DNA of 64,000 nucleotides from a virus (IMGVR_UViG_3300045944_000276:2514-66513), one strand, 5' to 3'; counted from the first letter of the stretch, positions 1-64,000 are shown. Numbers and translations are program-made. The notes: generated by a model from the letters alone, not told the origin.

Positions 1-1086
1 CACGATGCGCGGCAGAAGTGCCTGCGCGCGCAGCATGTCCATGAATTGCCCGTAACCCGTGCGCGTCAATTCCTGCGCCCATCCCGCCACGTTGCTCATC
101 GCGGGATTAACTGCCGCCTTGACGATGGTTTCGACGGCTTGCGAATTCGGAAAGCGCCGCGCCGCTACTGTTTCAACGTCCATCGACTTGACGCTGCTCT
201 CGTAGATACAGAGCGCCAGCTTCCCGAAGAGATTCTCCGTGTCCTTCGACTTGTCGCGGAACTGGACGATGTTCGCGCTTCCGACCTGCTCGCTCACCGG
301 TTGCGCGCCATTCGCCAGGCGGGCCTCGGCGGCTTTCAGCGAAGCGAGCTTGCCGTCGACCGCCTGCAGCTCGGCGTCGATGCCATCGACGATGGCCTTC
401 TGCGTGGTGAACTCGTCCGTGCCGGCGGCGCTCTCGCCAAGCTTCCCTGATTCGACCGCGAGCCGGTCGACCAGCTCGACTTGCTTTTCCTGCGTCTCGA
501 CGACAAGTTGAGAAATGGTCTTGCCCATTGCTTTACTCCGTTTGGGACTGCTGCTAGCGGCAACTGCCGACGGGGAGGACGACGCCGGAGCGCCGATCGC
601 GGGCAGCTGCCCTACGGCGTCCAGCGAGAAACCGAATTGCTTGGCGATCTGCACCGCGCGCGGGTGCGCAGGCACGCTGACGATCGAGGTCTCGAGGAGC
701 TCGAGCTCCCGGAAGTGAAGGCCGCCGATGTCATTCGGCTCGCCCTTGGCGCGGAAGCCGATCGAGGCGCCCAGGGGCACCCCGTCCGCAATGAGGGTTT
801 TCACCATCTGCGCGAGCGCGGTCGAGGCGAACTTGATCTCGCCAACCAGGGCGCCGGCCTCGACTTTCAGGTTTTGCCAGTAGCCGATCGGCTTCTCGCG
901 CTCGTGCTGCCAAAGGGCGATGAGCCGCTTGCGGAGATGCGGCTGGTAGGCGGCCGGGTCGATCGTGTCCTTGACGCGATCGGGCGAGGAGGCGGAAAGG
1001 ACGAAGCGCGCGTCGAATTCCGGCGCGGCGGACTTCTCGAGGGTGAGCGGGAAGCTTTTGACTAGGTCAGCGATGGCGGCGGGCAC
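1..1086 (-). CDS. Prohead protease-major capsid fusion (5' part; runs off the window)
   Basis: Translated by hand from GTG 1086. DARFVLSASSPDRVKDTID...GASIGF...ETSIVSVPAHPRA is an HK97-type protease. It continues in frame into MGKTISQLVV (ATG 528). Homologous to 32608-34524. Confidence 0.9.
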   Translation of the reverse strand, partial: MPAAIADLVKSFPLTLEKSAAPEFDARFVLSASSPDRVKDTIDPAAYQPHLRKRLIALWQHEREKPIGYWQNLKVEAGALVGEIKFASTALAQMVKTLIADGVPLGASIGFRAKGEPNDIGGLHFRELELLETSIVSVPAHPRAVQIAKQFGFSLDAVGQLPAIGAPASSSPSAVAASSSPKRSKAMGKTISQLVVETQEKQVELVDRLAVESGKLGESAAGTDEFTTQKAIVDGIDAELQAVDGKLASLKAAEARLANGAQPVSEQVGSANIVQFRDKSKDTENLFGKLALCIYESSVKSMDVETVAARRFPNSQAVETIVKAAVNPAMSNVAGWAQELTRTGYGQFMDMLRAQALLPRIV

Positions 1087-1202
1087 CGGTGAACTCCCGA
1101 GGAGCCACCGACCGCTCGCGCGATGGATTTACGCTGTGATTGATCGTCCTGCTTGCGCCGCTCGTCCTCGCGCTCGCGCCTGCCTGGACGATTGGAGGTC
1201 AT
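1062..1202 (-). CDS. Conserved Arg/Glu-rich micro-ORF (46 aa)
   Basis: MTSNRPGRREREDERRKQDDQSQRKSIA. The homologue at 34503-34640 differs over the first 30 codons mainly by synonymous changes (cgt/cgg, cca/ccc, gag/gaa). Confidence 0.65.
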   Translation of the reverse strand: MTSNRPGRREREDERRKQDDQSQRKSIARAVGGSSGVHRCPPPSLT

Positions 1203-1300
1203 TGGGAGCGGAGCCTTCCCTGCCCCTTGACCCCTGCTTGCCGACGCGCCCTGCGCGCTCCAGGCAAGCCGCAGGGGCATTCCTGATATGACTCAGACAT
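1199..1300 (-). CDS. Possible 33-aa leader peptide overlapping a hairpin
   Basis: Start, stop and length are conserved with 34637-34738, and the stop overlaps the next start. Amino-acid conservation is weak. Confidence 0.35.
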   Translation of the reverse strand: MSESYQECPCGLPGARRARRQAGVKGQGRLRSQ

Positions 1301-1331
1301 GCCCGGGATTGTGCGCGCGAGTCTGGGCGCA
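1301..1331 (-). promoter_or_regulatory. Candidate late promoter (CACAAT -10 element)
   Basis: gcgccc(a/g)gactcgcgcgcacaatccc is conserved with about 34743-34768. CACAAT lies 7 nt before the ATG in both copies. Confidence 0.45.
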
Positions 1332-1342
1332 GCACAATCGTA

Positions 1343-1645
1343 TTATTGTGTGATTTTTCCTGCGCTCGATTTCGCATAAAAATACGTTTCATGTGGAACC
1401 TCGCCGCGCAGGCAGTCGAGCACCCTGAGTAGTCGGCGGGCGAGTAGGTCGCGCGGTTCCGCGTTGCGGCCGGAGCGAAGGGCGGCCAGGGCCGACCACG
1501 AAGTTCCGACGGCGCGCGCGAGTTCGGAAGCCCGCAGGCCGCGGGCGTCGATCTCGTTAAGGATCGCCGGCCAGTCGATAGGCGCGGACACACTGGCCGC
1601 TTCAGCGGCGCGTGTTTCGATTTCGCGTTTTCTGTCCGGGTTCAT
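1343..1645 (-). CDS. XRE-type HTH protein coupled to terL
   Basis: GLRASELARAVGTSWSALAALRSGRNAEP fits an HTH pattern. ATGA overlap with terL. Homologue at 34784-35083. Confidence 0.75.
   Translation of the reverse strand: MNPDRKREIETRAAEAASVSAPIDWPAILNEIDARGLRASELARAVGTSWSALAALRSGRNAEPRDLLARRLLRVLDCLRGEVPHETYFYAKSSAGKITQ
1385..1400. promoter_or_regulatory. parS-like palindrome CGTTTCATGTGGAACC
   Basis: One mismatch to the core GTTNCACGTGNAAC. Same position as 34838-34853 in the other copy. Confidence 0.5.
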
Positions 1646-3162
1646 GCGATCAGGGCGGCGACATCGAACGCTGGCGCCGTAACCATGAAGACACCTACAG
1701 CCATCACCGCGGCCACCAGCGGGTCAATACGCTGTGTCGTGTGCGACTTGTCGAGCTTCCTGTTTCCCGCCGCATCGCGCACCACGATCGCGCTGGCGGC
1801 CGCCATGTTGAGCAGCGGATGGGCGCCGTGGCGCAGCTTCTGCTGCAAGAGGAGGGTCTCGAAGTGCTCCACGCGCGGGCTCATCGACTGGTAGCCCTGG
1901 CCGACTTCCAACCAGGTGTTGACTACGAAGCCGTTACGCTCGGCGGCCGACTTCGCCTCGACGATGCGCCAGCGGTCGAACGCGCAAACATCGACCCGCA
2001 CGCCCAGGTCGTCCAGGCGGATGCGCAGCCACTGGAAGAGGAAATCGTAGTCGATCGTGGCGCCCGGCACTGCGACCAGGTGTCCGCTCGCGACCCAGGC
2101 GGTGTACGGTGCCCGGTCCCGGAGCTCGCGTTCGGGCAACCCGCGCTCGGGCGTGAAGACGAACGGCAGGAGGTGGACGCTGCCGGCGTCGTCCTGGGCG
2201 GCCAGCACGCAGGCGGTCAGGTCGTTCCGCTGCGAGAGGTCGAGCCCGGCAGCCACCGTGCGCCCGTCCGCGAAGATCGCCTGATCAGGAGCGGCGCCGC
2301 ACGCCTTCCACACGCCGGGGGCCAGCCACTGGTGCTCGAGCGCCACGCGCTGGTTCAACACGTGGTTGCGGTACGCCGCCTCGGCGCCAGGCAGGCGCTT
2401 CGCCTCCGCGGCCTGGCGCAGCATCTCGCCCTGGTTCATGAACTCGCCGAAGTGCGGATTGGCCGCCTTGATCGCCTTCAGCCCGAATGGGTCCAGGTCA
2501 GCGGCCGCCGTGTAGAGCTCGATCTTCCTCTCCCGCTCCTCCCCGCGCAGCGCGTCGTCGATCAGCACCGACAGGAGATCGGCATCGCCCGGCGCCTGCG
2601 TGCTGATGACGATCGAGAGCGGCCGCGGCTGCTTCGCCTGCGCCGTCTCGAGCGCCTCGTAGAGCTCCGAGCGCGGTCCGCGCACCCGCCCGAGCTCGTC
2701 GTGCACCACGAAGGCCGGCGAGAGCCCGTGCGCCGTCGAGGCGTCCGCGGAGAGCGCCCGGTAGAGCGTCCCGAGTTTCGGGCACGCCAGCTGTTTCGCG
2801 GTCTCGCGCACGACCACCACTGCGGCCAGGTCCACCGACAGGCGCACGCACTTGGCCGCATACCCGAAGAGGATCGCCGCCTGGTCACGGGACTGCGCCG
2901 CCGAGAAGAGCTGGCTATTGGGCAGCGCTTCGTGACCGCACAGGTGCAGGAGCAGCAGGAACGCCGCGAACGCTGTCTTGGCGTTGCCCCGTCCCATCGA
3001 CAGGATGAAGGTCCGCGTCGGCGTGTCGTAGATCCGGCGCAGCCACCGCTTCTGGTGCGCCGTCAGCTTCACCGGCCGGCCGACGAGCCGGCCCTCCGGT
3101 ATCCGGCAGTAGTCCTCGATCCAGGCGGCGTTGCGCTGCCCGCGCGTCACTCGCTTGCCCAC
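1642..3162 (-). CDS. terL: Terminase large subunit
   Basis: Walker A-like GRGNAKT, Walker B VVHDELG, coupling motif ISTQ, nuclease motifs GLDLS and RIDPLVA. Confidence 0.95.
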   Translation of the reverse strand: MGKRVTRGQRNAAWIEDYCRIPEGRLVGRPVKLTAHQKRWLRRIYDTPTRTFILSMGRGNAKTAFAAFLLLLHLCGHEALPNSQLFSAAQSRDQAAILFGYAAKCVRLSVDLAAVVVVRETAKQLACPKLGTLYRALSADASTAHGLSPAFVVHDELGRVRGPRSELYEALETAQAKQPRPLSIVISTQAPGDADLLSVLIDDALRGEERERKIELYTAAADLDPFGLKAIKAANPHFGEFMNQGEMLRQAAEAKRLPGAEAAYRNHVLNQRVALEHQWLAPGVWKACGAAPDQAIFADGRTVAAGLDLSQRNDLTACVLAAQDDAGSVHLLPFVFTPERGLPERELRDRAPYTAWVASGHLVAVPGATIDYDFLFQWLRIRLDDLGVRVDVCAFDRWRIVEAKSAAERNGFVVNTWLEVGQGYQSMSPRVEHFETLLLQQKLRHGAHPLLNMAAASAIVVRDAAGNRKLDKSHTTQRIDPLVAAVMAVGVFMVTAPAFDVAALIA

Positions 3163-3575
3163 GGCAGGCGCCTGGGTTCCTGCTCGACGCTCGTCGCCGA
3201 GGCCTCGGCGCGATAAAGCGTCACCTGCGCGAGCCGCATCGAGTGCGCCAGCCTTTGCACCGCCCTGGTCTCGGCGAGCAGCAGCCGGCGCAGGCGCTCG
3301 TAGCGCGCGAGCCCTTCGTCGCCCTCCAGGGATGTCGGGTCAACCCGGTCCAACTGCGCGGCGATCACGTCCGCTCCCACGACGTGCCGGCAGTAATTCG
3401 CGAGCAACGGCTCGTGTTCGGGCCCGAACCATTCCGCAGGCCGGGAATTGACCGTGCGCAGCCACACCGCGCGCTCGGCCCCGTGTATCAGGCTAGCCGG
3501 CGGCCCGAGGCGGGTGACGCCCCGAATATCGGTCGCGACGACCGCCAGCGAAGATTTACGACCCCTCTGCTTCAT
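3147..3575 (-). CDS. terS: Terminase small subunit
   Basis: Directly upstream of terL. MKQRGRKS...PP...AVW...LLANYC resembles the P27 family. Confidence 0.8.
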   Translation of the reverse strand: MKQRGRKSSLAVVATDIRGVTRLGPPASLIHGAERAVWLRTVNSRPAEWFGPEHEPLLANYCRHVVGADVIAAQLDRVDPTSLEGDEGLARYERLRRLLLAETRAVQRLAHSMRLAQVTLYRAEASATSVEQEPRRLPWASE

Positions 3576-3581
3576 ACCGAT

Positions 3582-4040
3582 TTAGCGAAGGAACCTATCG
3601 GCCGCCGGTGCGCCGGCTCGCTTCGAGTCGTTCGCTTCCCCCCCGCCGGACTCGGTCGCACTCCCCCGTCGATTTGGCTTCGACCGCCGCCGCTTTCTCA
3701 GATCCGCCAGCATTTCCGTGATGAATTCGTCGCGGCCACGGATCTCCGTCGATAGATTCTCAATCACATAGCCTTCTGCAGTCAGAATGCCGATCCTTTG
3801 AGTCGAGCACGGCGCATACGCAAGAATCGGCCTCGCTATCCCACATCCGGCATTGAGGTCGTAGTGATCGAACAACCATCCGACGATAGGCACCTCATCT
3901 TCATGATAGTCGTCGTCATCGAGTAGTGTCACCACAAGCGCAGTATGACCAGTGCATGCGGGGATCATATGCTTCGCCGTCAAGCGCTCGACCTCGGCCT
4001 CACGCAGCTGACGCTCGGTAAGCTCTCTCAAGCGGGTCAT
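3582..4040 (-). CDS. Hypothetical phage protein
   Basis: ORF preceded by a GGAG RBS, between the HNH gene and terS. Confidence 0.55.
   Translation of the reverse strand: MTRLRELTERQLREAEVERLTAKHMIPACTGHTALVVTLLDDDDYHEDEVPIVGWLFDHYDLNAGCGIARPILAYAPCSTQRIGILTAEGYVIENLSTEIRGRDEFITEMLADLRKRRRSKPNRRGSATESGGGEANDSKRAGAPAADRFLR
3599..3665. other. Candidate cos/packaging site, copy 1
   Basis: 63 of 67 bp identical to 37069-37135, with unrelated flanks. Lies between the HNH gene and terS. Contains a gccgg-tgcg-ccggc dyad and a C7 run. Confidence 0.65.
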
Positions 4041-4044
4041 GGCG

Positions 4045-4338
4045 TTATCTCCAACCTGACGGCAGCCCATCGATCGCGACCGGCATGCGCTCGACATGGT
4101 TGCCGCCTTTCGCACTGTGCCGCTTCGCATCGCAGTCTATGCACAACGTGCGCAGGTTCGACAGCACGAGCGCCAGGTCAGGCCGCTTGCGCCTCGGCTC
4201 GACGTGATCAACCCGGCTTTCGCCCTTGCCGCGCACGCTGCGTTCGCAGATCGTGCATTTCCAGTGATCACGCTTGAGCGCCTTGTAGCGCAGCTCCCGC
4301 CAGGCGTTCGAGGAATAGAACGGGTCCGTGCCCTTCAT
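4045..4338 (-). CDS. Terminase-associated HNH endonuclease (HK97 gp74-like)
   Basis: FYSSNAWRELR...CTIC...VDHVEP...SNLRTLCIDCD, located upstream of terS. Confidence 0.9.
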   Translation of the reverse strand: MKGTDPFYSSNAWRELRYKALKRDHWKCTICERSVRGKGESRVDHVEPRRKRPDLALVLSNLRTLCIDCDAKRHSAKGGNHVERMPVAIDGLPSGWR

Positions 4339-4466
4339 GATCGTCCTTCCCACACGTCGTTGAGCAGCGCCAATTCTGCGTTCGTCGGCAGTCTGCCCGC
4401 AATTCTGCGAAGTTTCCACGACAGCCACAGGTAGCGGATGTGGCGGATGAGCGGCCAGCGCTTCAC
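4335..4466 (-). CDS. Conserved small protein (MKRWPLIRHIRYLW)
   Basis: Nearly identical to 38051-38182. Confidence 0.75.
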   Translation of the reverse strand: MKRWPLIRHIRYLWLSWKLRRIAGRLPTNAELALLNDVWEGRS

Positions 4467-4582
4467 GGCTTCTCCTTCCTTCTTCTCTGGTAATACTTGA
4501 AGTGAAGGAAGCCGTGCGACATACCGCACGATCTGTAGCGAACGTGCTTGCCGCAATTACTGCATCGCGTCCGGTATCTCAC
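4463..4582 (-). CDS. Small CxxC protein
   Basis: GTGA overlaps at both ends. Contains CSNC. Confidence 0.45.
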   Translation of the reverse strand: MRYRTRCSNCGKHVRYRSCGMSHGFLHFKYYQRRRKEKP

Positions 4583-4610
4583 GCGAGCACCCACGCCAGC
4601 ACGTCGGGCT

Positions 4611-4796
4611 TCATCGCTTCCACCACGACGGCAGCACCACGTCAAACCAGTGCGTCCACTGGCGCGTCCTCGTGCCGCACGTTACCGCGCAACTCCACGT
4701 CTTATAGACCTTGCGCTTATGGATGCGGAAACTCGGCATCTGCTGGCGGATGAAGCCGATAAACACACGTCCAGGTAGGCGCATGATCCGGATCAT
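4611..4796 (-). CDS. Hypothetical basic protein
   Basis: ATGA overlaps at both ends. Confidence 0.45.
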   Translation of the reverse strand: MIRIMRLPGRVFIGFIRQQMPSFRIHKRKVYKTWSCAVTCGTRTRQWTHWFDVVLPSWWKR

Positions 4797-4888
4797 GCCA
4801 GCACCCACGCCAGCACGAAGGCAGAGACCATCAGCACGATCGCCGCGATGACGATGAAGGGCAGGTTGTCCTCCTCGTCGTGTTTCAT
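4793..4888 (-). CDS. Single-TM micro-protein (31 aa)
   Basis: [31 protein letters not shown] with a GGAGG RBS. Homologue at 38893-38991. Confidence 0.75.
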   Translation of the reverse strand: MKHDEEDNLPFIVIAAIVLMVSAFVLAWVLA

Positions 4889-4970
4889 GCGGCCACCTCC
4901 GGACCACCTGACGGACCACCTATGCATGACGAGGTGGTCCGTAAATTCACGTTTCGATTCATGGCTTGAA

Positions 4971-5136
4971 CCCACCTAACCCAACTAACCCTCCTTTTCT
5001 CTATGTGTTCTCCCATATATCTATAACCTCTTTATCCTTTAGGTGGGTTAGGTGGGTTAGGTGGGTAAAGTAGTTGGTTTAAAACCGGAAATGTGCGGAC
5101 CACCTACTAACCCACCTGGATGGAGGTGGGTTAGGT
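4971..5136. repeat. Iteron cluster, probable replication origin 1
   Basis: Several AACCCACCT/AGGTGGGTT copies in both orientations around an AT-rich stretch, downstream of the VirE gene. Confidence 0.65.
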
Positions 5137-5404
5137 TCGGTGACTCGCGCCGAGTGTATTCCGCCACCCATTTCACCGCCTGGCTGACCGCCTGCTCATA
5201 GGCAAGTTCGCGCGCCCGGACATTCGGCGCACCGCGAGCCTGCGCCGTCACCATCGCCTGCCACGCCCGCCAGATCCTCACTTCCAGGCCCGGCACGTTC
5301 TTGCCCAACAACTTCCAGCACCGTTTGCACAGGCCATGCCACCGCTGCGAGTGCCCGCAGGGCTCGAGAGTTATCTCGCGCTCTAGCTCGTCTCGTTCGT
5401 CCAT
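5057..5404 (-). CDS. Hypothetical Cys-containing protein
   Basis: MDERDELE...PCGH...CKRC. Follows the VirE gene. Confidence 0.5.
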   Translation of the reverse strand: MDERDELEREITLEPCGHSQRWHGLCKRCWKLLGKNVPGLEVRIWRAWQAMVTAQARGAPNVRARELAYEQAVSQAVKWVAEYTRRESPNLTHLHPGGLVGGPHISGFKPTTLPT

Positions 5405-6744
5405 AGCCGCAGATACCTGCCCTTCTCCCACTGACGGGACTTTCTCCAGCCGTGCGCCGTCAGCACATCGGCCACCCGCATCTGTGCCTGCTTGTCGAAG
5501 TGCTTCACCTCCAGCCCTAGATCCCCCAGCACATCCGGTATCGACACCCGTGTCCTGAGCGAGACGAACGACAGGATCGCGTCTTCCCACGGATCGGCAT
5601 GGCGCCGGTCCTCCTGCGCCTGGCGCGTGGCCTCCTCCGGCATCTGCCACCACGGCTCGCCTCGCCGGAAACGCGCCACCGCCTCCGCGAACAACTGCTC
5701 GCGCTGCTCGCGCAGGAGCTCCAGCCGGATCTCTCCGCAGCGCACCGGCCAGAAACGCCGCGCCCCGGTCGCATCGCGCAGGTAGCCGTTGTCGTTGGTG
5801 GTGCCGCAGAACACGGTAAAGCGCGGGTGATCCTGCGAGCGCGCCCCGTAGGGCGAGCGGTAGCGATCGACCCGGCACGTCACCACCTGTTTCACGCGCG
5901 CGGTGTCGGCACGTCCGAAGGCGTCCATCTCGGTGATCTCGACCAGGAGCTTCCCCTGCAACGACAGAAAAAAATCCTTGTCGCGCAGGCTTTCGTGCGC
6001 CTCCGAATACCAATCACCCCCGACCAGGCGCAGCGCGCTCGACTTGCCGATGCCCTGCGCGCCCTCGAGAATCAGCATGTTGTCCACCTGGCAGCCTGGC
6101 TGGAGCGCCCGAGCGGCGAGCGACAACCAGAAATTGCGCGACGCGCAGCGCGTGTACTCATCATCGGCCGAGCCCATTACGTCGGTCAGGAAGTGCTCTA
6201 GGCGCTCGATGCCGTCGTGATGGAGCGATTCGAGCCAGTTGCGGCATTCGTTCTGGGTGTTCTTGCGCGCGACCAGGTTGACCGCCCGGCGCACGATGTC
6301 TACCCCCATCTTCGGCATCCCGCAGTCGCGCTGCACCCATACCGCGGCCTCGATGTCGTCGGTGTCGAGCCACTGCTCGGGAACGGCCGCGCCGTTCAGG
6401 CGATAGACGCGGCCATGAAATTCATCGAACCAGATCCGCGTTTTCCAGTCCGGGTGGTTCTGCAGCAACTGGCAGGCGTTTCGCTCGTTGCAGAACGGGA
6501 CTTGCCTGTCGTTCAATTCAAGGCCGCATTCGCGCCACATCGACAGGCGTTCCACTATCGACTCCACCATTGCCGTGGCCGGCGTGGGAAAGAGCGCGTT
6601 CACTCGACGTTTCTTGCCCCTCGAGGCCTTGCGCTTGGCGAGTACGTTCGCCGCATGATTGACCAGGCTCCCATCGGTGCCGTCGCCGTAGAAATCGGCA
6701 GAGGCCCCCGGGTCCGACGACCCGGGCTTCTGGGACTTGCTCAT
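5383..6744 (-). CDS. VirE/VapE-family ATPase (primase-associated helicase)
   Basis: PGCQVDNMLILEGAQGIGKSS Walker A. DRYRSPYG and GTTN...YLRDATGARRFWPV signatures. Confidence 0.9.
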   Translation of the reverse strand: MSKSQKPGSSDPGASADFYGDGTDGSLVNHAANVLAKRKASRGKKRRVNALFPTPATAMVESIVERLSMWRECGLELNDRQVPFCNERNACQLLQNHPDWKTRIWFDEFHGRVYRLNGAAVPEQWLDTDDIEAAVWVQRDCGMPKMGVDIVRRAVNLVARKNTQNECRNWLESLHHDGIERLEHFLTDVMGSADDEYTRCASRNFWLSLAARALQPGCQVDNMLILEGAQGIGKSSALRLVGGDWYSEAHESLRDKDFFLSLQGKLLVEITEMDAFGRADTARVKQVVTCRVDRYRSPYGARSQDHPRFTVFCGTTNDNGYLRDATGARRFWPVRCGEIRLELLREQREQLFAEAVARFRRGEPWWQMPEEATRQAQEDRRHADPWEDAILSFVSLRTRVSIPDVLGDLGLEVKHFDKQAQMRVADVLTAHGWRKSRQWEKGRYLRLWTNETS

Positions 6745-11204: not shown

Positions 11205-11462
11205 ATGACGAACGAGAGCTCACTGCTCACGCCTTCCGAGCTCGTGGAACTGACCGGCAAGCGCCGCTACAAGGCGCAGCAGCGCGTGCTTTCGAAGATG
11301 GGTGTGCGCCATGCCGTACGCCCGGACGGCTCGCCGGTTGTCTCGCGAGCCCTCGTCGCCGCCATGCTGGCGCGCTTTAGCGAGACGCCGCCCGAGCCCG
11401 CGAGCGCCGAGCCTGTACTGAACCTCGGGGCGCTGGCCGGGAAGCGGTCCCGCGGCGGCTGA
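11205..11462 (+). CDS. DUF4224-like putative excisionase
   Basis: LTPSELVELTG...Q...L...G...RPDGSPVV, directly before the integrase. Confidence 0.8.
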   Translation: MTNESSLLTPSELVELTGKRRYKAQQRVLSKMGVRHAVRPDGSPVVSRALVAAMLARFSETPPEPASAEPVLNLGALAGKRSRGG

Positions 11463-11485
11463 GTTATTTCTAACGAAAGGGCAAC

Positions 11486-12514: not shown

Positions 12515-12532
12515 ATGACACTGGAATAGGAA

Positions 12533-49560: not shown

Positions 49561-49561
49561 C

Positions 49562-56245: not shown

Positions 56246-56722
56246 TTACGCGAACACCGAAGGGAATTGGCTCGGGTCATAACTATCCGCAGGCCATGGG
56301 GCGTTGAGCAAATCCCCGCTGATGAGCCGCCCGCTGATCGACTGCATGTCGTAGGTGATGTCCATGATCGTCATGTCGAGGAGGCTCATCTCGATCACGT
56401 TCGGCTGCGTCGAGAGCACCACATACACGTCGAGCGTCGGCGCGCTGGGGAGTCCCCGGATCACCTCGATCAGGGCGCGGTTCACGTTGTCGAAGCGGAC
56501 CTCCACGCTCGGATTCGTCTGTCCGTCATCAACCGCGAGCGTGAGATCGAACGGATACCCGACCCAGGTGTGACCGAGCGCGACAACATCGGTCGTGTTA
56601 TTGACGAAGCGATGCGGCGTATCCAGCTCCGGGTGCTGGATATGGACCAGGACGAACCACGCCGCCCCGGTCGAGAGCGAGTTGAGCGACAGGACTGCCT
56701 GCGCGGAGAGCGTGCGGCTCAC
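56246..56722 (-). CDS. Minor tail protein (DUF1833-like)
   Basis: Homologue of 22073-22546. Confidence 0.8.
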   Translation of the reverse strand: MSRTLSAQAVLSLNSLSTGAAWFVLVHIQHPELDTPHRFVNNTTDVVALGHTWVGYPFDLTLAVDDGQTNPSVEVRFDNVNRALIEVIRGLPSAPTLDVYVVLSTQPNVIEMSLLDMTIMDITYDMQSISGRLISGDLLNAPWPADSYDPSQFPSVFA

Positions 56723-57075
56723 GGCAGCGCCTCGAGCCGGAACGCCGCGCGCCAGGCGATGCCGAGCGCGGAGAACTGCGGCGGCGAGGCGAAGCGGAAC
56801 GAGGTCGCGACGCCCGTGATCGGGTGCGCCATCAGGATCGTGTCGGTGCCGCCCTGGCAGATGACGTAGTAGAAGTCGCGAAGCTCCGCATACTCGGCGG
56901 CATTCCGGAGCACGATATTGCACTCGTAGGTGCGCACCGGGTTCAAGAACCGCCGGCGCACCTTCGGCGGACCGGTGTCCATGTCGGTGCGGATCGTGAC
57001 TTCCTGCGGGCTCTCGCTGAAGGCGTCGGAGGTGAACGCCTCGCTGATGCCGGGCGGCCAGGGGTTATTTGGCAT
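56719..57075 (-). CDS. Distal tail protein
   Basis: Homologue of 22543-22899. Confidence 0.8.
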   Translation of the reverse strand: MPNNPWPPGISEAFTSDAFSESPQEVTIRTDMDTGPPKVRRRFLNPVRTYECNIVLRNAAEYAELRDFYYVICQGGTDTILMAHPITGVATSFRFASPPQFSALGIAWRAAFRLEALP

Positions 57076-57076
57076 G

Positions 57077-59074
57077 TCAGCGCGCTCCCTGGCGGTTCAA
57101 CCCGTAGGTCGTGCCCATGACGGAATCGAACGCACCCGAGCGGAAGCCTGCGGCGACGGCGTCCTTGACCATGAGCTCGATGATCCGGTTGCCGTTGATG
57201 TCGCTGCGCGAGCTCGTCGTGACCTCCGCCTTCGATTCGTTGTAGACGTTGACGACGACGCCCGAGCCGCTCGCATCCACGCCGAGCGAGCCGTCGGACC
57301 CGCGCTTTAACGGCATGATCGCTTCCGGCCCGGCTTCGGCGAATACGCCGCCCTGGGCGAAGCTGAAGAGCTTGGGCTTGTCGTAGACGCCGCCCGAGTA
57401 TTTCGAGAGCGAGGGCGAATCGTAGACGCCGCCCAAAGCGTTCGCCGTGAAGAGGCTCCCGCCGCTCGTCTTCAGCCAGCCCTTGAACCCCGTCATGAGC
57501 GGCTCGATCAAGAGCATCTGCGTCGCCATCTTTGCCATATCACGCAGGATCGAGGTCGCCATGTCGCTGAACGATTTCGCCGCGTCGTCCGCCCCGCTCG
57601 CGAAGTCGACCAGCGAATCACTGATGGACTTCGCGTAGCCGTCCACCTTGTCGGCAATGGACTCGAGCATCTTTTCCAGATCGGTCGCGGGTTTCTCGAC
57701 CTGCTTCATCGTCGTTTGCATCCGCGTGAGCGCGGTCATGTATTCCTCGAGCGAGATTTCGCCCTTTGTGTAGGCGTCATCGAGCAGCGCGATCTGGTCG
57801 ATGAGCTTCTGCGTCCCGGCGTGGCCGGTCAGCTCGTCGAGCTGCTTTTGTCTTTTCTCCGTCTCCAGGCGCATCGCTTCCGTGCCGCTCTTGCCGTCGT
57901 TCAGCGCAAGCCCCAGTTCGCGCTCTGCATCGATTTGCACATCGATCGACTCGACGAGCGATTTAATTCCCGCCTCGCGCTCCTTGCGCTGGCGCTCCGC
58001 TTCCTTCTTCGCCTCCGCGTCGCTCCCCGGCTTTTGAAACTTGAGTTCCTTGTCGCCCGTCTCCATTCCGCGCGTATCGCGGCGCTGGTGCGGCGGCAGC
58101 AACGCGAGCGCCTGCTCCTGCGATTGCATCTTCAGGAACTCGATCTGCCGCTTGATCGCTGCGTTCTGCGCCTCGTAGCCGGGAATAACGCCTGTGCGGC
58201 CTTGCGAAATGGCTTTCGCCATCAGTTGCTGATTCTTTTCCAGACGCTCGTTCAGCGACCTGATGTTCTCCTGCGGATTCTTGAACGGGTTGATCGTCCC
58301 GAACTCGAAGAGCGAGCGCCAGAAGCCGCCGGAAATCTGGATGCCTTTCTGCATCTCGTCGGTCGCCTTCTGCAGCATCGGGATCAGTTCGCGCGCGAGC
58401 GCCTGCGCGCCCTCGATCCACGAGTTCTCCAGGCGGCGCATCGACTTCTGCAATTCCTCGGCCTGCGCCGCCTGTTCCTTCGTCACCGTCGCCGCGATCC
58501 CCTGCTCGGTCGCGAGATCGCGCATGAAAGGGAGCGCCTCGGCGGCATTCTTGCCGGTCAGCGCCATGATGGCGGCGGTCTTCGCCCCGCTGTCGGCGAA
58601 CTGGTTGAACGCGAGGGCGACCCTCTTCATCGCCTCGGCCGGGTCCATCGCGCGCAGCTCCGCGAGGGAAAGACCGACCGCCTTCAGCGCCGCGGCGCCG
58701 TCCTTTCCCGCCTCGTCGGACTCGTGCAGGGCCTTGTTGAGCTTCACGAGGAAGCCTTCGACTACGCCCATGTCGGTGCCGGATATGCGCGCGACCTGCT
58801 GGAGGACCGACAGATTCTCCACGCTCGCGCCGGTTTTCTCTGAGAGGTCGTCGAGCGCCGCCGCCGCCTCGATGCTCTTGCTAACGAACGCGGTCAACGC
58901 GCCAACGGAGAGCGCCGGAAGGAGCGACTTGGCGAATCCCTCGACCGCGCTCGACGCAGCAGAGAATTGCTTCTCTATCGCCGCCGTGGACGATTGCACC
59001 CTCTTCAACTGGGCGAGAGAGTCCTGCGCGAGCTTGACCTGGAGCTCGTAAATCCGGGTCGTGGTCTCGGCCAT
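57077..59074 (-). CDS. Tail tape measure protein
   Basis: 665 aa homologue of 22899-24920. Confidence 0.92.
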   Translation of the reverse strand: MAETTTRIYELQVKLAQDSLAQLKRVQSSTAAIEKQFSAASSAVEGFAKSLLPALSVGALTAFVSKSIEAAAALDDLSEKTGASVENLSVLQQVARISGTDMGVVEGFLVKLNKALHESDEAGKDGAAALKAVGLSLAELRAMDPAEAMKRVALAFNQFADSGAKTAAIMALTGKNAAEALPFMRDLATEQGIAATVTKEQAAQAEELQKSMRRLENSWIEGAQALARELIPMLQKATDEMQKGIQISGGFWRSLFEFGTINPFKNPQENIRSLNERLEKNQQLMAKAISQGRTGVIPGYEAQNAAIKRQIEFLKMQSQEQALALLPPHQRRDTRGMETGDKELKFQKPGSDAEAKKEAERQRKEREAGIKSLVESIDVQIDAERELGLALNDGKSGTEAMRLETEKRQKQLDELTGHAGTQKLIDQIALLDDAYTKGEISLEEYMTALTRMQTTMKQVEKPATDLEKMLESIADKVDGYAKSISDSLVDFASGADDAAKSFSDMATSILRDMAKMATQMLLIEPLMTGFKGWLKTSGGSLFTANALGGVYDSPSLSKYSGGVYDKPKLFSFAQGGVFAEAGPEAIMPLKRGSDGSLGVDASGSGVVVNVYNESKAEVTTSSRSDINGNRIIELMVKDAVAAGFRSGAFDSVMGTTYGLNRQGAR

Positions 59075-59808
59075 CAGCGCCCCCGTCCGCGAACAGCCAG
59101 ACGCACCTTGATCGCCGGTATGCGGTCCACGGCGGTTTTCCCGCCGAGGTTGAGATTCGAGACGCTGAGGTATATGTCCTTTACGTCGAGCGAGCGGAAG
59201 CGCCGCTGGACCTGCTTCGCGCTCGTTTCAAACACGGACTTGGAAACCATCTGCGCCTTCTGCCCGGTCGCCCTGGCGTAGCGCAATAAGAGCTTGTTGC
59301 GGGTGCGACGCTGCCCGCGCGTGCCGCTCTTCGTGAGCCACTGCCACTTGCGCACGTGCGCGAGCGGCAGCGCCACGTAGAGGTCGAGCGCCGCGGGGTT
59401 CGGCATCGCAGCGGTGATCGCCGTCGGATCACACGGCGCAACAGTGCCGCCCTTGCCGATGCTGTAGTAGAACGCGAGCGCGCCGAGCGTGCGCCCGGTC
59501 GCGCGACGGCCGTTCTGCACGAGCGCGTCGCGCGCCGCGATAATGGCATCGGCCATCGCCTTGCGATCGGCGAACCAGACGCGCACCGAGCGTTGCGCCG
59601 CGCCGATGTCCTGGCTGCGCCGGCCGTCCACGAGCATCCCGGTCGGCTTGTTGCCCATGCTCGACTGGACGCTTATTTCCTGCAGCGCGATCGAGCGCAG
59701 CACGTGCTGGTAGTCGCGCTCGGCGACCTGCAGGATATCCCTGTAGATCGCGCCGCGCTGCGTGGAGCTAATTACGGGGATCGGGGTTACGGCGGGCAGG
59801 GCTTGCAC
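59074..59808 (-). CDS. Conserved basic tail-region protein
   Basis: Homologue of 24920-25648. Confidence 0.7.
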   Translation of the reverse strand: MQALPAVTPIPVISSTQRGAIYRDILQVAERDYQHVLRSIALQEISVQSSMGNKPTGMLVDGRRSQDIGAAQRSVRVWFADRKAMADAIIAARDALVQNGRRATGRTLGALAFYYSIGKGGTVAPCDPTAITAAMPNPAALDLYVALPLAHVRKWQWLTKSGTRGQRRTRNKLLLRYARATGQKAQMVSKSVFETSAKQVQRRFRSLDVKDIYLSVSNLNLGGKTAVDRIPAIKVRLAVRGRGR

Positions 59809-60094
59809 GTTTCTGCTTCCTCAGCTTGGCCGTATGCTCGTCGAGCATCGCGCCCGCGCGCCGCAGGACGGGCCAGAGCCACTCGAGATCGACGCCGTAG
59901 TGATCGCACCATTCGCGCACCCTCCACCACGGTGCGCTCGTGCCGAGATCACCGCACACGTCGAGACCTGGCAGGAGCCACATCGGCACATCGGGGCGCG
60001 CATCGAGCGCCGGAACTTTCCTTCCGCGTGCCCGCGCCTTCTCCAGCTCCTCGACGTGCTCGCCATAGTCGTTTTGCCAGATCAGGATTTTCCC
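59768..60094 (-). CDS. Tail assembly chaperone, -1 frameshift extension
   Basis: Slippery GGGAAAA at 60088-60094. Continues GKILIW. Confidence 0.75.
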   Translation of the reverse strand, partial: GKILIWQNDYGEHVEELEKARARGRKVPALDARPDVPMWLLPGLDVCGDLGTSAPWWRVREWCDHYGVDLEWLWPVLRRAGAMLDEHTAKLRKQKRASPARRNPDPRN

Positions 60095-60501
60095 AACTGG
60101 TCGCCGTCCTCCTTCGTCAGCGGGAACCGCTTCGAATTGGCCGCGGCGTCTTTTAGTTCGTCCCACAGTTGCGGGCAGTCGCGCAGCAGCGCGATCATGT
60201 TCTCGGGCGTGAACTCCAGCGGCGCACCGTGGCCGTTCGTGACGTTCTTCCAGCCGACCGCCACGTAGCGCGCAAAGGCTTCCATTTGCAGATCGTCTTG
60301 CAGCGCGAGCGCTTGCGGCGATTCGCCGAGCGCGAGCAGTTCATCGCGCCGGTTTCGATACAGTAGCCCGAGCCCGTAGCGATATTCCCGGTTGACGTTC
60401 GACGCCGAACGCAGGATGAACTCCCACTCGTCGAAGACGACGGGCGCGCCAGCCTTCTCGGCAAGGCGGTCAACGCCATACTTGTCGCGCGGGTTGCTCA
60501 T
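60082..60501 (-). CDS. Tail assembly chaperone (G-like)
   Basis: MSNPRDKYG...LGKS. Confidence 0.8.
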   Translation of the reverse strand: MSNPRDKYGVDRLAEKAGAPVVFDEWEFILRSASNVNREYRYGLGLLYRNRRDELLALGESPQALALQDDLQMEAFARYVAVGWKNVTNGHGAPLEFTPENMIALLRDCPQLWDELKDAAANSKRFPLTKEDGDQLGKS

Positions 60502-61463
60502 GCAGCGACAGTGGCCGCAGTGACCACGCTCGCGCCGCGCGTGACCTTGACCGTGCACTGCTCGGTCTCATCAAAGAGCGCCTGTGCCTGCATGGCGACC
60601 GTCACGTCGGAATTGGTTCCCGGCAACGTGACCGGCGCCGCCATCATCTTGCAGCGCGGGAAACTGAACTCATACTCGAGCGCGCCGGCGGCATCGTTCA
60701 ACGTGACCGTGATCGGGAATTCCGTCTGGTCGATCAGAGCCTGCAGCGGGTCATCGGACGCAAAGTAGAGCGTCGCACTGATCTGAGCGTTCAAGCGCCC
60801 GCGCACGGTCTCCCGCGTGCCAAGCGTGCCGATGCACTGGATGCCGCGACTCGAGGAATCGAAGGAGAGCTCCACCGCGTTGAAGCACGCGGTCGCCGCG
60901 ATGCCGCCCACCGAGATCACAACGTCCTGTGGCACCAGCACCGGCTCCACGCCGGGGTCGGGATAGGTCGCTCCCGCTATTGCGGCAGTATCCAGAGTCA
61001 TCGGGCCGCCCAGGACGCCCACACTGCCGGTGATCGGCGTCGCCGGCTCGATCGAGATCGTCATCGTCGAGAACGCGGTCTTATCGAAGCGGTGATAGGC
61101 GTCGGCGCCCGCGGCAGGGATGTCGGGGAAGGTCTCCTCGAGCAGATACTGGCGCAGCGTCGAGCCATTCTTGAGCACGTCCGCCGTCCAGGCGCCACCG
61201 AGCACGGCCTGCAGATACGCTTCGAAGGCGTCGTGGTCCGAGACTTCGAGCGAGAGATCGCCGGTCGTTTCGCCACCGGTCAGGATCGAGTCGCGGATAT
61301 TGCCGGAAGCGTCGAACTCGTTCGACGCGGTGACGCTTGGCGAAAAGGCGGGCGTTGCGGCCGTAAGCCGCCCGACCGTGAAAACAGGCGTTGCGGGAAT
61401 CGCGGGCGGCGAACCGGTCAATTCGACGAACGCAACTCTTACCAGGTCAGCGGCTAGCGGCAT
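60498..61463 (-). CDS. Major tail tube protein
   Basis: Homologue of 26338-27330. Confidence 0.85.
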   Translation of the reverse strand: MPLAADLVRVAFVELTGSPPAIPATPVFTVGRLTAATPAFSPSVTASNEFDASGNIRDSILTGGETTGDLSLEVSDHDAFEAYLQAVLGGAWTADVLKNGSTLRQYLLEETFPDIPAAGADAYHRFDKTAFSTMTISIEPATPITGSVGVLGGPMTLDTAAIAGATYPDPGVEPVLVPQDVVISVGGIAATACFNAVELSFDSSSRGIQCIGTLGTRETVRGRLNAQISATLYFASDDPLQALIDQTEFPITVTLNDAAGALEYEFSFPRCKMMAAPVTLPGTNSDVTVAMQAQALFDETEQCTVKVTRGASVVTAATVAA

Positions 61464-61472
61464 GGTGAACTC

Positions 61473-61883
61473 CTATGAGAAATGGTCGTGAGCGAACGCG
61501 AAATCGACGGCGCAGATGAGCCAGCGTCCGTCCGAGAACTCGGACGGCGCCGGCGGGATGTGGCCCATCACGCGGATTCTCCCGCTCGCGTCGCGCCAGT
61601 GCCGGAAGTGCGCCGCGATGAGATCGGCCTGGCCGATGATCACGCCGTCGCCGTCGCCGGTGCGCCCGACGACGTAGACGCGGAAGGTGCCCATCTCGCG
61701 GCAGCAGGTCGGCGTGCCGAGCGAGACCGCGTTATCCGAGATCGGAATGAAATCGGTCGTCGCCCACAGGTCCGGCAGAGCAGTGTTATCGATGCGAACG
61801 CCCAGCGTGTCGTATTGCGGCAGCGCCGGGAACGCCGCGGCGAGCTCCATGCGGAAGGCGTTGCGCGCGACGGCCGAGCTCAT
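61473..61883 (-). CDS. Tail terminator/completion protein
   Basis: Homologue of 27341-27745. Confidence 0.7.
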   Translation of the reverse strand: MSSAVARNAFRMELAAAFPALPQYDTLGVRIDNTALPDLWATTDFIPISDNAVSLGTPTCCREMGTFRVYVVGRTGDGDGVIIGQADLIAAHFRHWRDASGRIRVMGHIPPAPSEFSDGRWLICAVDFAFAHDHFS

Positions 61884-62233
61884 CAGTTGCCTCGGATCGT
61901 GGCGATGAGAAGGGGCAGCGTGTTCCCGGCGAGCACCGGGTGGACGTCCAGGATCGTGTATTTGCGCCGAAATCCCTCGATGTCAACGTCCAGCACGTCG
62001 AATTGCTGCGGCCGGCGATTGGGCGCGTTGAAGTCAGCAGGCGAGAGCAGTGCCTTCGCCGCTTCGCTGTTCAAGTCCTGCAGGAGCGCCGCGGGGTCCG
62101 TGTCGCGGTAAACAACGCATTGCACCGGGCGACCGCTCACCGCGCCCTGCTCGATAAACATGGCCGTCGAGCCGAGATCGGAGAGCATCCCCTGCGCGAG
62201 GTCGCGGATCAGCGGGAAATCCACGAGCGGCAT
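61883..62233 (-). CDS. Head closure protein
   Basis: Homologue of 27745-28101. Confidence 0.7.
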   Translation of the reverse strand: MPLVDFPLIRDLAQGMLSDLGSTAMFIEQGAVSGRPVQCVVYRDTDPAALLQDLNSEAAKALLSPADFNAPNRRPQQFDVLDVDIEGFRRKYTILDVHPVLAGNTLPLLIATIRGN

Positions 62234-62871
62234 CAGACGTAATCCTTCACGCGATAGGCTTCGAGCGTGTAGAGATAGGGCGCCAGGAGCGGGGGTACCG
62301 TGCTCGTGTCATAGCTCGACTTCGCCGCCTGCTGCGTGTCGAAGGAAACCGTGAGCGCGCCCGAGCCGAGCCCAAGCGACTTCAGCGGCGCGCCGCCGCC
62401 CGAGCTCGAACTGCCCGAGTAGGTGACGCCGCCGAAATCGGCGCAGCACCGGGCGAAGGCGAGCGCCAGGTCGGCCGGCATGTCGTCCTCCGGGTAGCCG
62501 CCCGAGTAGGTGACGCGGGCGAAGCTGCCGGGATACCACCACCAGGTGCCGTAGCCCCAGCCACAGGAGAGGTAGATGAACCCGCGCGCCTGGTCGAGGC
62601 TGGGCGGCACCGGCACCGGGTCGACCGCCGTCCCGTCGATGGCGAGCTCGGCGACTTCGTATACCGGGAAGCGGTAGAGCGGCAGGCGCTCGACGGCGAC
62701 GATGCGGCTCTCCTCCACGACCGGGTCCACGTAGGCGAGCCCGCGCCTGCAGTGGTTCTCGAAATACGCCGTGATGACCGGGAGCGCCGCCGTCAGTGCG
62801 TCGTCCTGGTCGGTGTCGGTGATCCCGAGGAGCGCCTTGACGGACTCGAGCGGGAGCAGTATCGGGCTCAC
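62233..62871 (-). CDS. Head-tail connector
   Basis: Homologue of 28101-28763. Confidence 0.8.
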   Translation of the reverse strand: MSPILLPLESVKALLGITDTDQDDALTAALPVITAYFENHCRRGLAYVDPVVEESRIVAVERLPLYRFPVYEVAELAIDGTAVDPVPVPPSLDQARGFIYLSCGWGYGTWWWYPGSFARVTYSGGYPEDDMPADLALAFARCCADFGGVTYSGSSSSGGGAPLKSLGLGSGALTVSFDTQQAAKSSYDTSTVPPLLAPYLYTLEAYRVKDYV

Positions 62872-63605
62872 GAGAGGAACCTCGCGACCGCTTTCTCGAT
62901 CGCTTCGGTGAGTGCCGGGCCGAAGTCGGCCGATAGCTCATCGAGTGAGCCATCGGCGTTTTTCTGCACGAGCACGAGCTCGAACCCGGTCGCCTGCGCG
63001 CCGATGATGGTCGCCCCGTCGCGCCCGTCCTTGCCCGGCGCGCCCTGCGCGCCGGGATCGCCGGGCCTGCCGGCCGCGCCGCGCCCGGCCAGCAGGACGG
63101 GCTGACCGCGAACGATGCAGAAGGTGCCCATGTCCTTCCGGTAGAGATCGCCGTCCAGGTAGCGCGCATCGGGATCGAAGGCGCCGCGATGGCGAAAGCC
63201 CCACGAGCCGATGCGCTCCCAGTGATCCGGGTCGTCCGTGTGGCTTGCGGTGTCGCGCTTGGCGACGAAGTGCTGGCCCAGGTTCGCCACCACGACCGCG
63301 CCTTCCCGGTACACCGCGCCCGGCTCCCACTGCGGCGCGGTGATGCCGGCACCCTGCGCGCCGGGAGCACCGTCCTTGCCCGGTCGACCAAGGAGCTTTC
63401 CGATAAAGGCGTCGTTCGCCGCCAGGCGCTGCGCCACGAGGTCGGGATCGGCATCCTTGCCCGGTGCGCCCTGCGGGCCGGGCGTCAGGGGCATCATGTC
63501 GAGTCGTTCGGCGGTTCGCTGGATCGTCGTGTCTAGTTTCCGTTCCAGCCGCACAAGGTCATCGATCAACGGTTCGAGCGCCGCCGCGATCGCTTTTTCG
63601 TTCAT
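62868..63605 (-). CDS. Collagen-like portal-adjacent protein
   Basis: Homologue of 28760-29539. Confidence 0.75.
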   Translation of the reverse strand: MNEKAIAAALEPLIDDLVRLERKLDTTIQRTAERLDMMPLTPGPQGAPGKDADPDLVAQRLAANDAFIGKLLGRPGKDGAPGAQGAGITAPQWEPGAVYREGAVVVANLGQHFVAKRDTASHTDDPDHWERIGSWGFRHRGAFDPDARYLDGDLYRKDMGTFCIVRGQPVLLAGRGAAGRPGDPGAQGAPGKDGRDGATIIGAQATGFELVLVQKNADGSLDELSADFGPALTEAIEKAVARFLS

Positions 63606-64000
63606 TAGGCCGCCTTCCTTTTACGTTCGCGCAATTCGATGACAAGCGCCTTCGTAATCTCCGGATCAGCCACTTTTTCCTCCTCGTCGGGCTCGTCCTG
63701 GTCGTCAGGCGCGGCGACTGGCGCAGGCGCCGGCCTGTTCTTGGCGGCGATCGTCGCGGCGTGGAGCTCGGTCAACATGTCGATCGAGACCATCTGCTGC
63801 TGCAGGAACACCGTGTCTCCGCCCGCGACGGGCGGCAGGCCTTCGCCGAAGCGACCCTCGTTCGGAGCTATCAGGCCGCCCTGTATCGCCTTGGTGATGG
63901 CGTCGATGCGCACCACGTAGTCCATGCGCAGCAGAGCGCTCTCGTCGAACTCGATGTATTCGTCGGCAGGCAGGTTGAAGCCGGCGTCGAAGCTCCTCTC
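63605..64000 (-). CDS. Portal protein (3' part only)
   Basis: Nearly identical DNA to about 29700-29943. Confidence 0.92.
   Translation of the reverse strand, partial: ERSFDAGFNLPADEYIEFDESALLRMDYVVRIDAITKAIQGGLIAPNEGRFGEGLPPVAGGDTVFLQQQMVSIDMLTELHAATIAAKNRPAPAPVAAPDDQDEPDEEEKVADPEITKALVIELRERKRKAA

Follow-up and report, generated by a model that had tools for sequence, protein, structure and literature searches.

A 66.5-kb soil virus record holds two related temperate phage genomes, probably joined in assembly at a common portal-gene segment

The 64,000-nucleotide stretch analysed here (the window) is taken from a soil virus record in IMG/VR, 66,513 bp long, of which it covers bases 2514-66513, and it consists of two related temperate phage genomes, 33-34 kb each, lying head to tail. 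The ends of the record and its switch from one genome to the other fall in a single near-identical island of the portal gene, contigs from soil runs break at this island, sequencing depth steps there in one run, and a sibling record is built in the same way. From these observations we infer that the assembler, rather than a molecule, made the join, and the record is most probably an assembly path via a repeat common to both phages and not a physical double genome. A sequence-only reading of the same DNA had proposed three possible origins, a co-infection cointegrate, a library ligation product or an assembly chimera, of which the assembly chimera is the best fit; its headline claim of a physical heteromultimer is not borne out, given breaks at the portal island among the listed contig pieces of four of four runs and a roughly two-fold coverage step in one of the four.

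That reading had described a gene map repeating about every 33.5 kb, and self-blastn blocks together with matching ORF ends confirm two collinear phage units, A and B, with the following features.

1-29943: arc 1, unit A, whose start in the full record is in the portal gene, 2,513 bp before the first window position
30447-64000: arc 2, unit B, from self-blastn and end alignment
1-1086, cut by the window start: prohead protease-major capsid fusion, unit A
32608-34524, minus strand: prohead protease-major capsid fusion, unit B
1642-3162, minus strand: terL, unit A, 93.8% amino acid identity to the unit B copy
35096-36610, minus strand: terL, unit B, from ORF ends and comparison with the unit A copy
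3147-3575, minus strand: terS, unit A, phrog_12559
36601-37029, minus strand: terS, unit B, 55% amino acid identity to the unit A copy
4045-4428, minus strand: HNH endonuclease, unit A
37488-37835, minus strand: HNH endonuclease, unit B
5383-6744, minus strand: VapE-like replication protein, unit A only
39206-40933, minus strand: Prim-Pol / AAA_25 replication protein, unit B only
15893-17467, minus strand: tail fibre, unit A, with a Peptidase_S74 C-terminus
49931-51052, minus strand: tail fibre, unit B
17359-21690, minus strand: J-like central tail fibre / tail tip, unit A
51049-55365, minus strand: J-like tail tip, unit B, 83% amino acid identity

Four self-blastn blocks pair the units: 4-3665 with 33448-37135 (77.6%), 17082-22075 with 50775-55750 (81.8%), 22100-28764 with 56273-62872 (78.9%) and 28880-29943 with 62913-64000 (80.1%), with short patches only outside them. 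Over the structural genes A and B are 70-82% identical, and their structural proteins are 62-94% identical; the terL and tail-tip stop positions reported earlier agree with the ORF ends found here. The early genes do differ, as had also been claimed, with no significant blastp match between the units for integrase, xis, RecT, replication protein or the repressor-like protein. The replication protein is VapE in unit A versus Prim-Pol in unit B, and the tail fibres, likewise said to be different, are alike over their N-terminal 115 amino acids only. Both units have a gene for a RecT-domain protein, to which unit A adds one for an exonuclease. Together with the portal island, unit A would close to a 32,959-bp circle and unit B to a 34,057-bp circle.

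By its gene set, each unit can be assigned to the HK97-like cos temperate siphoviruses, the cos ends being predicted: present are terS-terL, portal, S78 protease, HK97-fold capsid, tape measure, J-like tip, a cos-adjoining HNH gene and an integrase. TerL shares 57% amino acid identity with that of Pseudomonas phage PAJU2 and 44% with that of HK022. The HNH gene beside terS, the S78 protease, HK97-fold capsid, tape measure, J-like tip and tyrosine integrase are features held in common with PAJU2 and the HK97/HK022-like siphoviruses, whereas the fusion of protease to capsid and the position of the portal gene downstream of the capsid gene set the units apart. The nearest cultured phages by TerL have genomes of 29-47 kb, and two circular relatives, G002 (41.5 kb) and G003 (29.4 kb), each possess a single structural module. 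Megablast of window 1-25000 retrieved no nucleotide-level match from a set of 50,697 phage records. Biologically the pair is unremarkable: both are new relatives, from soil, of HK97/PAJU2-type temperate phages, and they have in common a portal-gene segment that was exchanged recently.

The geometry of the record centers on that piece. Base 1 of the record aligns to record position 32960 and its last base, 66513, to 32456, such that start and end both fall in the portal gene, with 503 bp between them when measured on one unit, and flank a stretch present only once, in mid-record. Both ends are thereby placed within the same ~1.1-kb island as the A-to-B switch, at window 29.7-30.8 kb. The sequence-only reading had placed the start of the window in a capsid gene, which is correct (the protease-capsid fusion), but the full record extends 2,513 bp further upstream and starts, as it ends, in the portal gene.

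29536-30936, minus strand: portal gene, the sole complete copy, 466 aa (PF04860, E 5e-73)
29710-30846: near-identical portal-gene island, the site of the A-to-B switch and also, when mapped onto one unit, of the start and end of the record
29912-30086: S1, a 175-bp run without a unit-distinguishing marker; the record 3' end lies 32 bp into its equivalent
30087-30247 (record 32600-32760): variable patch with 9 SNPs, in allele state R in this record and R' in G005
30248-30558: S2, a 311-bp run without a distinguishing marker; the record 5' end lies 112 bp before its end

Identity across the island is 0.92-1.00 per 100 bp (about 90-100%), compared with 0.55-0.85 in the flanks; both the genome switch and the contig ends are thus inside a segment that is near-identical between the two genomes. 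In unit B itself, S1 is represented by window-equivalent 29912-29943 only. The first 112 bp of the record are an exact copy of record 32960-33071, which is the longest exact repeat in the record and is cut off by the record start, and the last 200 bp match at 192 of 200 positions; no exact repeat of at least 127 bp was found within the record, whereas sibling records have 127-bp terminal repeats.

These positions are consistent with a figure-eight assembly graph. Phages A (~32,959 bp) and B (~34,057 bp), related temperate HK97-like cos siphophages, would co-occur in soil and would have recently exchanged a near-identical portal-gene stretch of ~1.1 kb, which a short-read de Bruijn assembler would merge into a single node. 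The graph would then consist of two circles with one node in common, and the record would be one pass through it: along arc A, once through the node, along arc B, and to a halt on meeting the node again. The outcome would be a 66.5-kb contig that resembles a head-to-tail heterodimer minus ~503 bp. The loop handling of SPAdes traverses such a loop once. Repeat regions can yield fragmented assemblies and chimeric contigs, and some unitigs are common to several mosaic phage genomes, as stated in the Phables paper (PMC10104058). In likeness to other chimeric or looped de Bruijn contigs, the join and the contig ends here lie inside a near-identical segment common to both genomes, island depth equals the sum of the flanks in one run (X2), unitigs break at the island borders, and parts of such contigs occur alone in other samples. 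The record differs from them in being unusually tidy, with almost exactly one full turn of each genome, and it therefore mimics a head-to-tail dimer and scores 100% complete. A circular heterodimer, on the other hand, would produce an identical collapsed graph with an identical 503-bp gap.

The exact ends of the record count against the figure-eight path, as would any use of read pairs by the assembler to choose that path. The distances of the two ends from the closest markers, 112 bp and 32 bp, are too small for clean k=127 edges, by 15 and 95 bp.

A sibling record provides a second case. G001 (56,556 bp) contains all 29,420 bp of G003 at 99.98%, and G003 was assembled from another sample as a circular genome with a 127-bp terminal repeat. 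Removal of the G003 loop from G001 at a 144-bp exact repeat leaves G004, a record from a third sample; the 23,940 bp before the loop or after it show 2 mismatches and the 3,467 bp across from them show none, and the lengths add up exactly (27,263 + 29,420 - 127 = 56,556). The 56.6-kb "dimer" is one phage plus one full turn of another, each assembled alone elsewhere.

Depth and contig breaks were assessed in Logan contigs from four soil runs, X1-X4, for which 32 of 272 pieces were listed; depths are contig depths, not raw-read depths. A piece joining arc 1 to arc 2 is absent among these 32 listed pieces. The listed pieces from X1, X2 and X4 include a separate 627-bp piece spanning 29762-30388, and in X3 they end at 29791 and restart at 30764. 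A graph break at the portal gene, which the earlier reading had named as a mark of a chimera, is therefore present in all four runs among the listed pieces. Another such mark, a coverage step, is seen at about two-fold in X2 but not in the other three runs. In X2, the listed pieces have depths of 13.2-23.4 for arc 1, 23.6 and 25 for the island, and 8.93 for arc 2, and the island depth is the sum of its flanks (16.3 + 8.93 = 25.2). In X4, depth is about 5, then 8.15 and 9.73 (island), then 5.2-6.6. By our own arithmetic on the listed pieces, the A:B depth ratio is ~1.96 in X2, 1.07 in X1, 0.87 in X3 and 0.84 in X4. The fixed 1:1 stoichiometry of a physical cointegrate was thus not found, X2 being at about 2:1. 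X1 is the run closest to the record, with 0.99 of words and an identical island, and is the probable source run. Its arcs are near-equal in depth (6.7-12.7 versus 9.7) and its island is raised only ~1.4-1.5x over the arcs, not 2x, and its depths are compatible with a 1:1 dimer; by listed contig depths, the island is raised yet the flanks are near equal in both X1 and X4.

One alternative is a real 67-kb molecule: a circular or concatemeric (rolling-circle) A-B heterodimer, formed by RecT-type homologous recombination at the portal island between two soil temperate phages during co-infection or co-induction, and sampled as replicating DNA. We regard this as unlikely. Both cos-like elements and both attP-like regions are spanned, as in replicative or circular DNA, the two arcs differ little in depth in X1, X3 and X4, the RecT-domain proteins and the unit A exonuclease are suited to such an origin, and the island itself is evidence of past DNA exchange between A and B. 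In addition, the X4 island pieces have arc-2-end alleles on the left and R' with arc-1-start alleles on the right, a combination that suggests the second, reciprocal junction that a circular heterodimer needs, but these are bubble-popped contigs. Because Logan contigs pop bubbles, allele linkage in X4 is unreliable. Set against the heterodimer are the 2:1 depth step at the island in X2, the variation of the A:B ratio among runs, and the finding of both parts of the sibling dimer alone in other samples. Moreover, with a cos-like element present in A and in B, terminase should cleave the heterodimer to monomers, and dimers would be a small, transient share of the DNA, and therefore unlikely to dominate a ~10x assembly. 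If the heterodimer were real, then cutting at its two cos sites would release reciprocal recombinants with whole early and lysogeny modules swapped, and the record would be a phage module-exchange intermediate caught in nature, a rare direct view of the step behind mosaicism; G001, as a second case, would mean that cointegrates recur in this HK97-like phage group. Haplotype linkage from Logan contigs was discarded as proof in either direction, given that bubbles are popped; at the variable patch, X2, X3 and X4 have three different island allele mixes.

The cos-like and attP-like sites bear on the remaining explanations.

3599-3665: cos-like element, unit A, conserved, non-coding, 67 bp, upstream of terS
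37069-37135: cos-like element, unit B, conserved, non-coding, upstream of terS
11205-12514, plus strand: excisionase and tyrosine integrase, unit A
47096-48633, plus strand: excisionase and integrase, unit B, the integrase with an Arm-DNA-bind_2 domain
12515-12740: attP-like AT-rich region, unit A, with 10-11-nt repeats on both sides
49340-49540: attP-like region, unit B, with four copies of ATTATGCCAG flanking an inverted repeat

The conserved 67-bp non-coding elements are offset by 33,470 bp, the spacing reported earlier. They are nearly identical between A and B, which would fit two linear virion DNAs ligated or annealed in vitro at compatible cos ends during library preparation. However, it is the portal gene, and not cos, in which the record starts and ends and in which the near-identical island is found, and short-insert shotgun libraries would not be expected to keep 33-kb ligation products as contigs, which makes this explanation very improbable. 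Of the joining routes put forward from sequence, a join within a conserved structural gene (portal) is supported and one at the cos ends is not. Cos phages such as lambda and HK97 replicate as concatemers that are repeats of one genome. The record is like them in that cos-like elements separate its units, with terS-terL adjoining cos on one side and the HNH gene on the other, but its units are 18-30% diverged, with differing early modules.

In unit A, AATAATAGACA-type motifs at 12531, 12541, 12654 (inverted) and 12728 flank an AT-rich center adjoining int, and in unit B ATTATGCCAG occurs at 49353, 49364, 49514 and 49526 around an inverted repeat at 49381-49438. Motif sets and centers are unrelated between A and B, in agreement with the proposal of arm repeats on each side of unrelated cores. 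Because both attP-like regions are uncut and unrelated, the units were not joined at att, as the sequence-only reading had concluded. Tandem double lysogens of lambdoid phages arise by Campbell integration at att or by recombination into a resident prophage. The record resembles these in having two temperate genomes head to tail, each with an integrase, but it lacks host flanks, split att sites and a common core, its attP-like sites being intact. That the units were tandem prophages in a bacterial chromosome, formed at att or by recombination of phage B into a resident prophage A, is accordingly highly improbable, even though both have integrase and excisionase: phage genes and arm-type repeats flank each attP-like region on both sides, the putative cores are unrelated, and gene order is vegetative rather than that of a prophage. 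Neither attL/attR hybrid sites with host DNA at the outer ends nor an att core common to the inner junction and outer sites was found, and the integrases are unrelated. The absence of host DNA noted before also holds, with no tRNA found in the window and none of the scanned proteins recognisable as cellular. When prokaryote genomes, one for every species, were searched with the portal protein, 56 pattern matches came up but not one was confirmed, and neither a host nor a prophage form was found.

Most probably, then, a public virus record scored 100% complete combines two genomes, and the same fault recurs in a sibling. Such records would skew statistics on genome size, clustering, host range and gene content, and checks for identical-copy concatemers would miss them because the copies are only ~78% identical.

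Unit A was also encountered elsewhere, without unit B. A 6.7-kb piece of it, G005, was assembled from a different sample; it is 99.98% identical to record 1-6122 and runs back into the island, to which the arc 1 end is linked in G005 by one SNP in 54 bp only. It ends at window 3609, inside the cos-like element, with nothing beyond cos, and is thus uninformative on a cos join. A 32-mer from the island hit only G005 in IMG/VR and had 0 hits in metagenome_contigs. For unit B, two specific 30-mers gave 0 hits and the Prim-Pol had no relative in IMG/VR, where the unit A VapE has only a 46% relative. A further run, X6, contains 0.49 of the words of window 27000-33000, which could mean that one unit is present there without the other.

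The window spans bases 2514-66513 of an IMG/VR virus record. That 66,513-bp record, classed as linear with a completeness estimate of 100% and carrying neither N nor a terminal repeat anywhere along its length, presents two related phage genomes (units A and B) head to tail. The sequence-only reading took this for a physical heteromultimer. An assembly product is probable instead, because the record ends and the A-to-B switch lie in a near-identical portal-gene stretch (the island), depth steps two-fold there in one soil run (X2), and a sibling "dimer" record resolves into two separate phages. The gene map itself had been described correctly, including its repeat at about 33.5 kb: self-blastn gives two collinear units at that offset, with only short patches in common between 4.3-17 kb and 37.8-50.8 kb. 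G+C is 59-70% across the window. In gene content A and B both look like whole temperate siphophages, their genes running in the vegetative order on the minus strand.

Matching blocks between the units (self-blastn)
4-3665 and 33448-37135, 77.6%
17082-22075 and 50775-55750, 81.8%
22100-28764 and 56273-62872, 78.9%
28880-29943 and 62913-64000, 80.1%

Gene content of each unit
Packaging, minus strand: HNH endonuclease, conserved non-coding element, terS, terL
Head, minus strand: prohead-protease/major-capsid fusion, small genes, portal
Tail, minus strand: connector and tail genes, tape measure, minor tail proteins, J-like tip, fibre
Accessory and integration: accessory region, attP-like site, integrase and excisionase (these two on the plus strand)
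Recombination, regulation and replication: recombination genes, repressor-like HTH protein, resolvase, replication protein

Structural proteins of A and B are 62-94% identical (TerL 93.8%, tape measure 84%, tip 83%, terS 55%). As had been claimed, the units differ elsewhere: there is no significant match between their integrases (342 vs 422 aa), excisionases, RecT proteins, replication proteins (VapE-like vs Prim-Pol/AAA_25) or repressor-like proteins, and their fibres have only the first 115 residues in common. Host DNA was likewise correctly reported absent, with no tRNA in the window and no cellular-looking protein among those scanned.

Two pairs of sites bear on where the units were joined.

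12515-12740: attP-like AT-rich stretch of unit A, directly after integrase A; AATAATAGACA-type motifs at 12531, 12541 and 12728, and inverted at 12654
49353, 49364, 49514, 49526: four ATTATGCCAG motifs of unit B, flanking an 18-nt inverted repeat at 49381-49438
3599-3665 and 37069-37135: conserved 67-bp non-coding cos-like element upstream of each terS, offset 33,470

The arm repeats do lie on both sides of both att centres, and the two motif sets are unrelated. With phage genes on both sides of each, the two sites resemble uncut attP in their sequence. A search of the portal protein against one genome per prokaryote species gave 56 pattern matches, not one of which was confirmed, and no host attB. 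Tandem prophages fit poorly, and we consider them scarcely credible. The cos-like elements, 33,470 bp apart as had been noted, stand where HK97-type phages have cos. G005, a 6,679-bp piece of unit A from another sample, stops at 3609, 10 nt into this element; virion DNA of unit A may have its physical cos end there, or coverage may just break off.

Decisive for the join are 2.5 kb of record sequence that the window leaves out. The first base of the record aligns to its position 32960 and the final one, 66513, to 32456, so the portal gene holds both ends. In unit terms 503 bp separate them, and the stretch between them is present once, within the complete mid-record portal gene (29536-30936). 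The first 112 bp are an exact copy of record 32960-33071, the longest exact repeat in the record and one truncated by the record start; the last 200 bp match at 192 positions. Across the island (about 29710-30846) A and B are 92-100% identical per 100 bp, against 55-85% directly outside. The record is thus arc 1 (A), a shared node and arc 2 (B), with each end halting in the shared node, which is how a path should run through a figure-eight graph when two circular genomes have one segment in common (closed circles of 32,959 bp for A and 34,057 bp for B). In such an assembly the near-identical portal segment would become a single graph node, and a path from arc 1 through it to arc 2 would leave each contig end within it. 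The Phables paper describes repeats in mosaic phage genomes that can give chimeric contigs, and unitigs common to several genomes (PMC10104058). Sibling records of the same sample family carry 127-bp terminal repeats, which we infer to be the mark of k=127 de Bruijn assembly; the present record has no exact repeat of at least 127 bp. A circular heterodimer would collapse to the same graph, so geometry alone cannot choose between the two. It does place the join in the portal island and not at cos or att: the earlier proposal is supported in discarding att and in naming conserved structural genes, and not supported as to cos ends. An in-vitro join at cos fits this geometry poorly and is very unlikely. 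Whatever made the join, the island is real evidence of recent exchange of part of the portal gene between A and B, which is ordinary phage mosaicism.

Read depth bears on the remaining readings. Six soil runs contain 27000-33000, led by X1, the probable source run (0.99 of words), and X2 (0.97). Run depths are those of Logan contigs, placed on 26000-34000 for X1-X4; no piece among the 32 listed of 272 connects the two arcs. A separate 627-bp piece spans 29762-30388 in each of X1, X2 and X4, and the X3 pieces listed end at 29791 and restart at 30764.

Logan contig depths, with A:B ratios from our own arithmetic on the listed pieces
X1: arc 1 10.5, 6.7, 11.3, 10.6, 12.7; island 15.2, 13.7; arc 2 9.7; A:B ~1.07
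X2: arc 1 16, 23.4, 18.7, 13.2, 16.3; island 23.6, 25; arc 2 8.93; A:B ~1.96
X3: arc 1 7.18, 8.66, 6, 5.26; island not among the listed pieces; arc 2 9, 7.3, 7.1, 7.8; A:B ~0.87
X4: arc 1 4.9, 5.27, 4.9; island 8.15, 9.73; arc 2 5.2, 6.1, 6.6; A:B ~0.84

The unit-by-unit coverage comparison that had been proposed gives a divided answer. In X2 a two-fold step falls exactly at the island, whose depth equals the sum of its flanks, as for a chimera; in X1, the run that best matches the record, the arcs are nearly equal and the island only ~1.4-1.5x, which counts against assembly and for a genuine cointegrate, produced by recombination within the island. X4 also favours a cointegrate, its island pieces combining arc-2-end alleles (29797-29911), a G005-type middle patch and arc-1-start alleles (30559-30649), the reciprocal junction that a circular dimer requires. 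However, Logan contigs pop bubbles and the island allele mixes differ among X2, X3 and X4, so this linkage carries little weight either way. If A and B each occurred once per molecule, the ratio should be 1:1 in every run, whereas it varies among runs and reaches ~1.96 in X2. A cointegrate is unlikely. SNP combinations at 30087-30247 and 30400-30412 differ among X2, X3 and X4, with three sites peculiar to X3, and these mixes suggest that at least three related phage lineages live in these soils, or that exchange there has been repeated.

Related records, from 11 loci found by a portal search of IMG/VR, provide a parallel for the assembly reading. G001 (IMGVR_UViG_3300045944_000167; loci L014-L016) is linear, 56,556 bp, scored 100% complete, and has two portal genes at a distance of 29 kb. 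The whole of G003 (29,420 bp), which is a circular record with a 127-bp repeat in another sample, lies within it at 99.98%, between copies of a 144-bp exact repeat (23797 and 53090). What is left once this loop is taken out equals G004, assembled from a third sample, with 2 mismatches over 23,940 bp to one side and 0 over 3,467 bp to the other, and the lengths agree exactly (27,263 + 29,420 - 127 = 56,556). This "dimer" from the same phage group is thus one phage plus one turn of another, with a short exact repeat as the point of entry; each part assembled alone elsewhere. For unit A, G005 matches record 1-6122 at 99.98% and reaches another 557 bp back into the island, where 9 SNPs (record 32600-32760) are all that separates it from the mid-record copy. 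Over its first 54 bp it has the sequence of the end of arc 1 and differs by one base from that of arc 2, a hint that unit A closes on itself. The circular relatives G002 (41.5 kb) and G003 have one structural module each, and the nearest cultured phages by TerL are PAJU2 (57% aa identity) and HK022 (44%), those listed having genomes of 29-47 kb.

The head-gene order is unusual in both units: terS-terL is followed by a 638-aa Peptidase_S78 prohead protease/major capsid fusion, several small genes and only then the portal gene (29536-34524 in unit B). It is not an assembly effect, since circular G002 and G003 are collinear with it. Unit B has, between capsid and portal genes, a 212-aa ORF (31896-32534, minus strand) that matches nothing in Pfam or PHROG and holds an imperfect tandem repeat (32056-32399; period 87 or 150 bp, 76-78% matches); the equivalent part of unit A (record 950-1670) shows no homology. 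The accessory region of unit A (13073-15513), between its attP-like site and fibre genes, has lower G+C (~59%) and no counterpart in unit B; its genes include one for a P63C-domain protein (phrog_2384, matching anti-repressor Ant weakly) and, on the opposite strand, one for a phrog_3989 protein. In unit B, a short ORF at 38372-38908 (minus strand) partially matches DNA methyltransferase families (phrog_67, E 1e-13) and may be a fragment.
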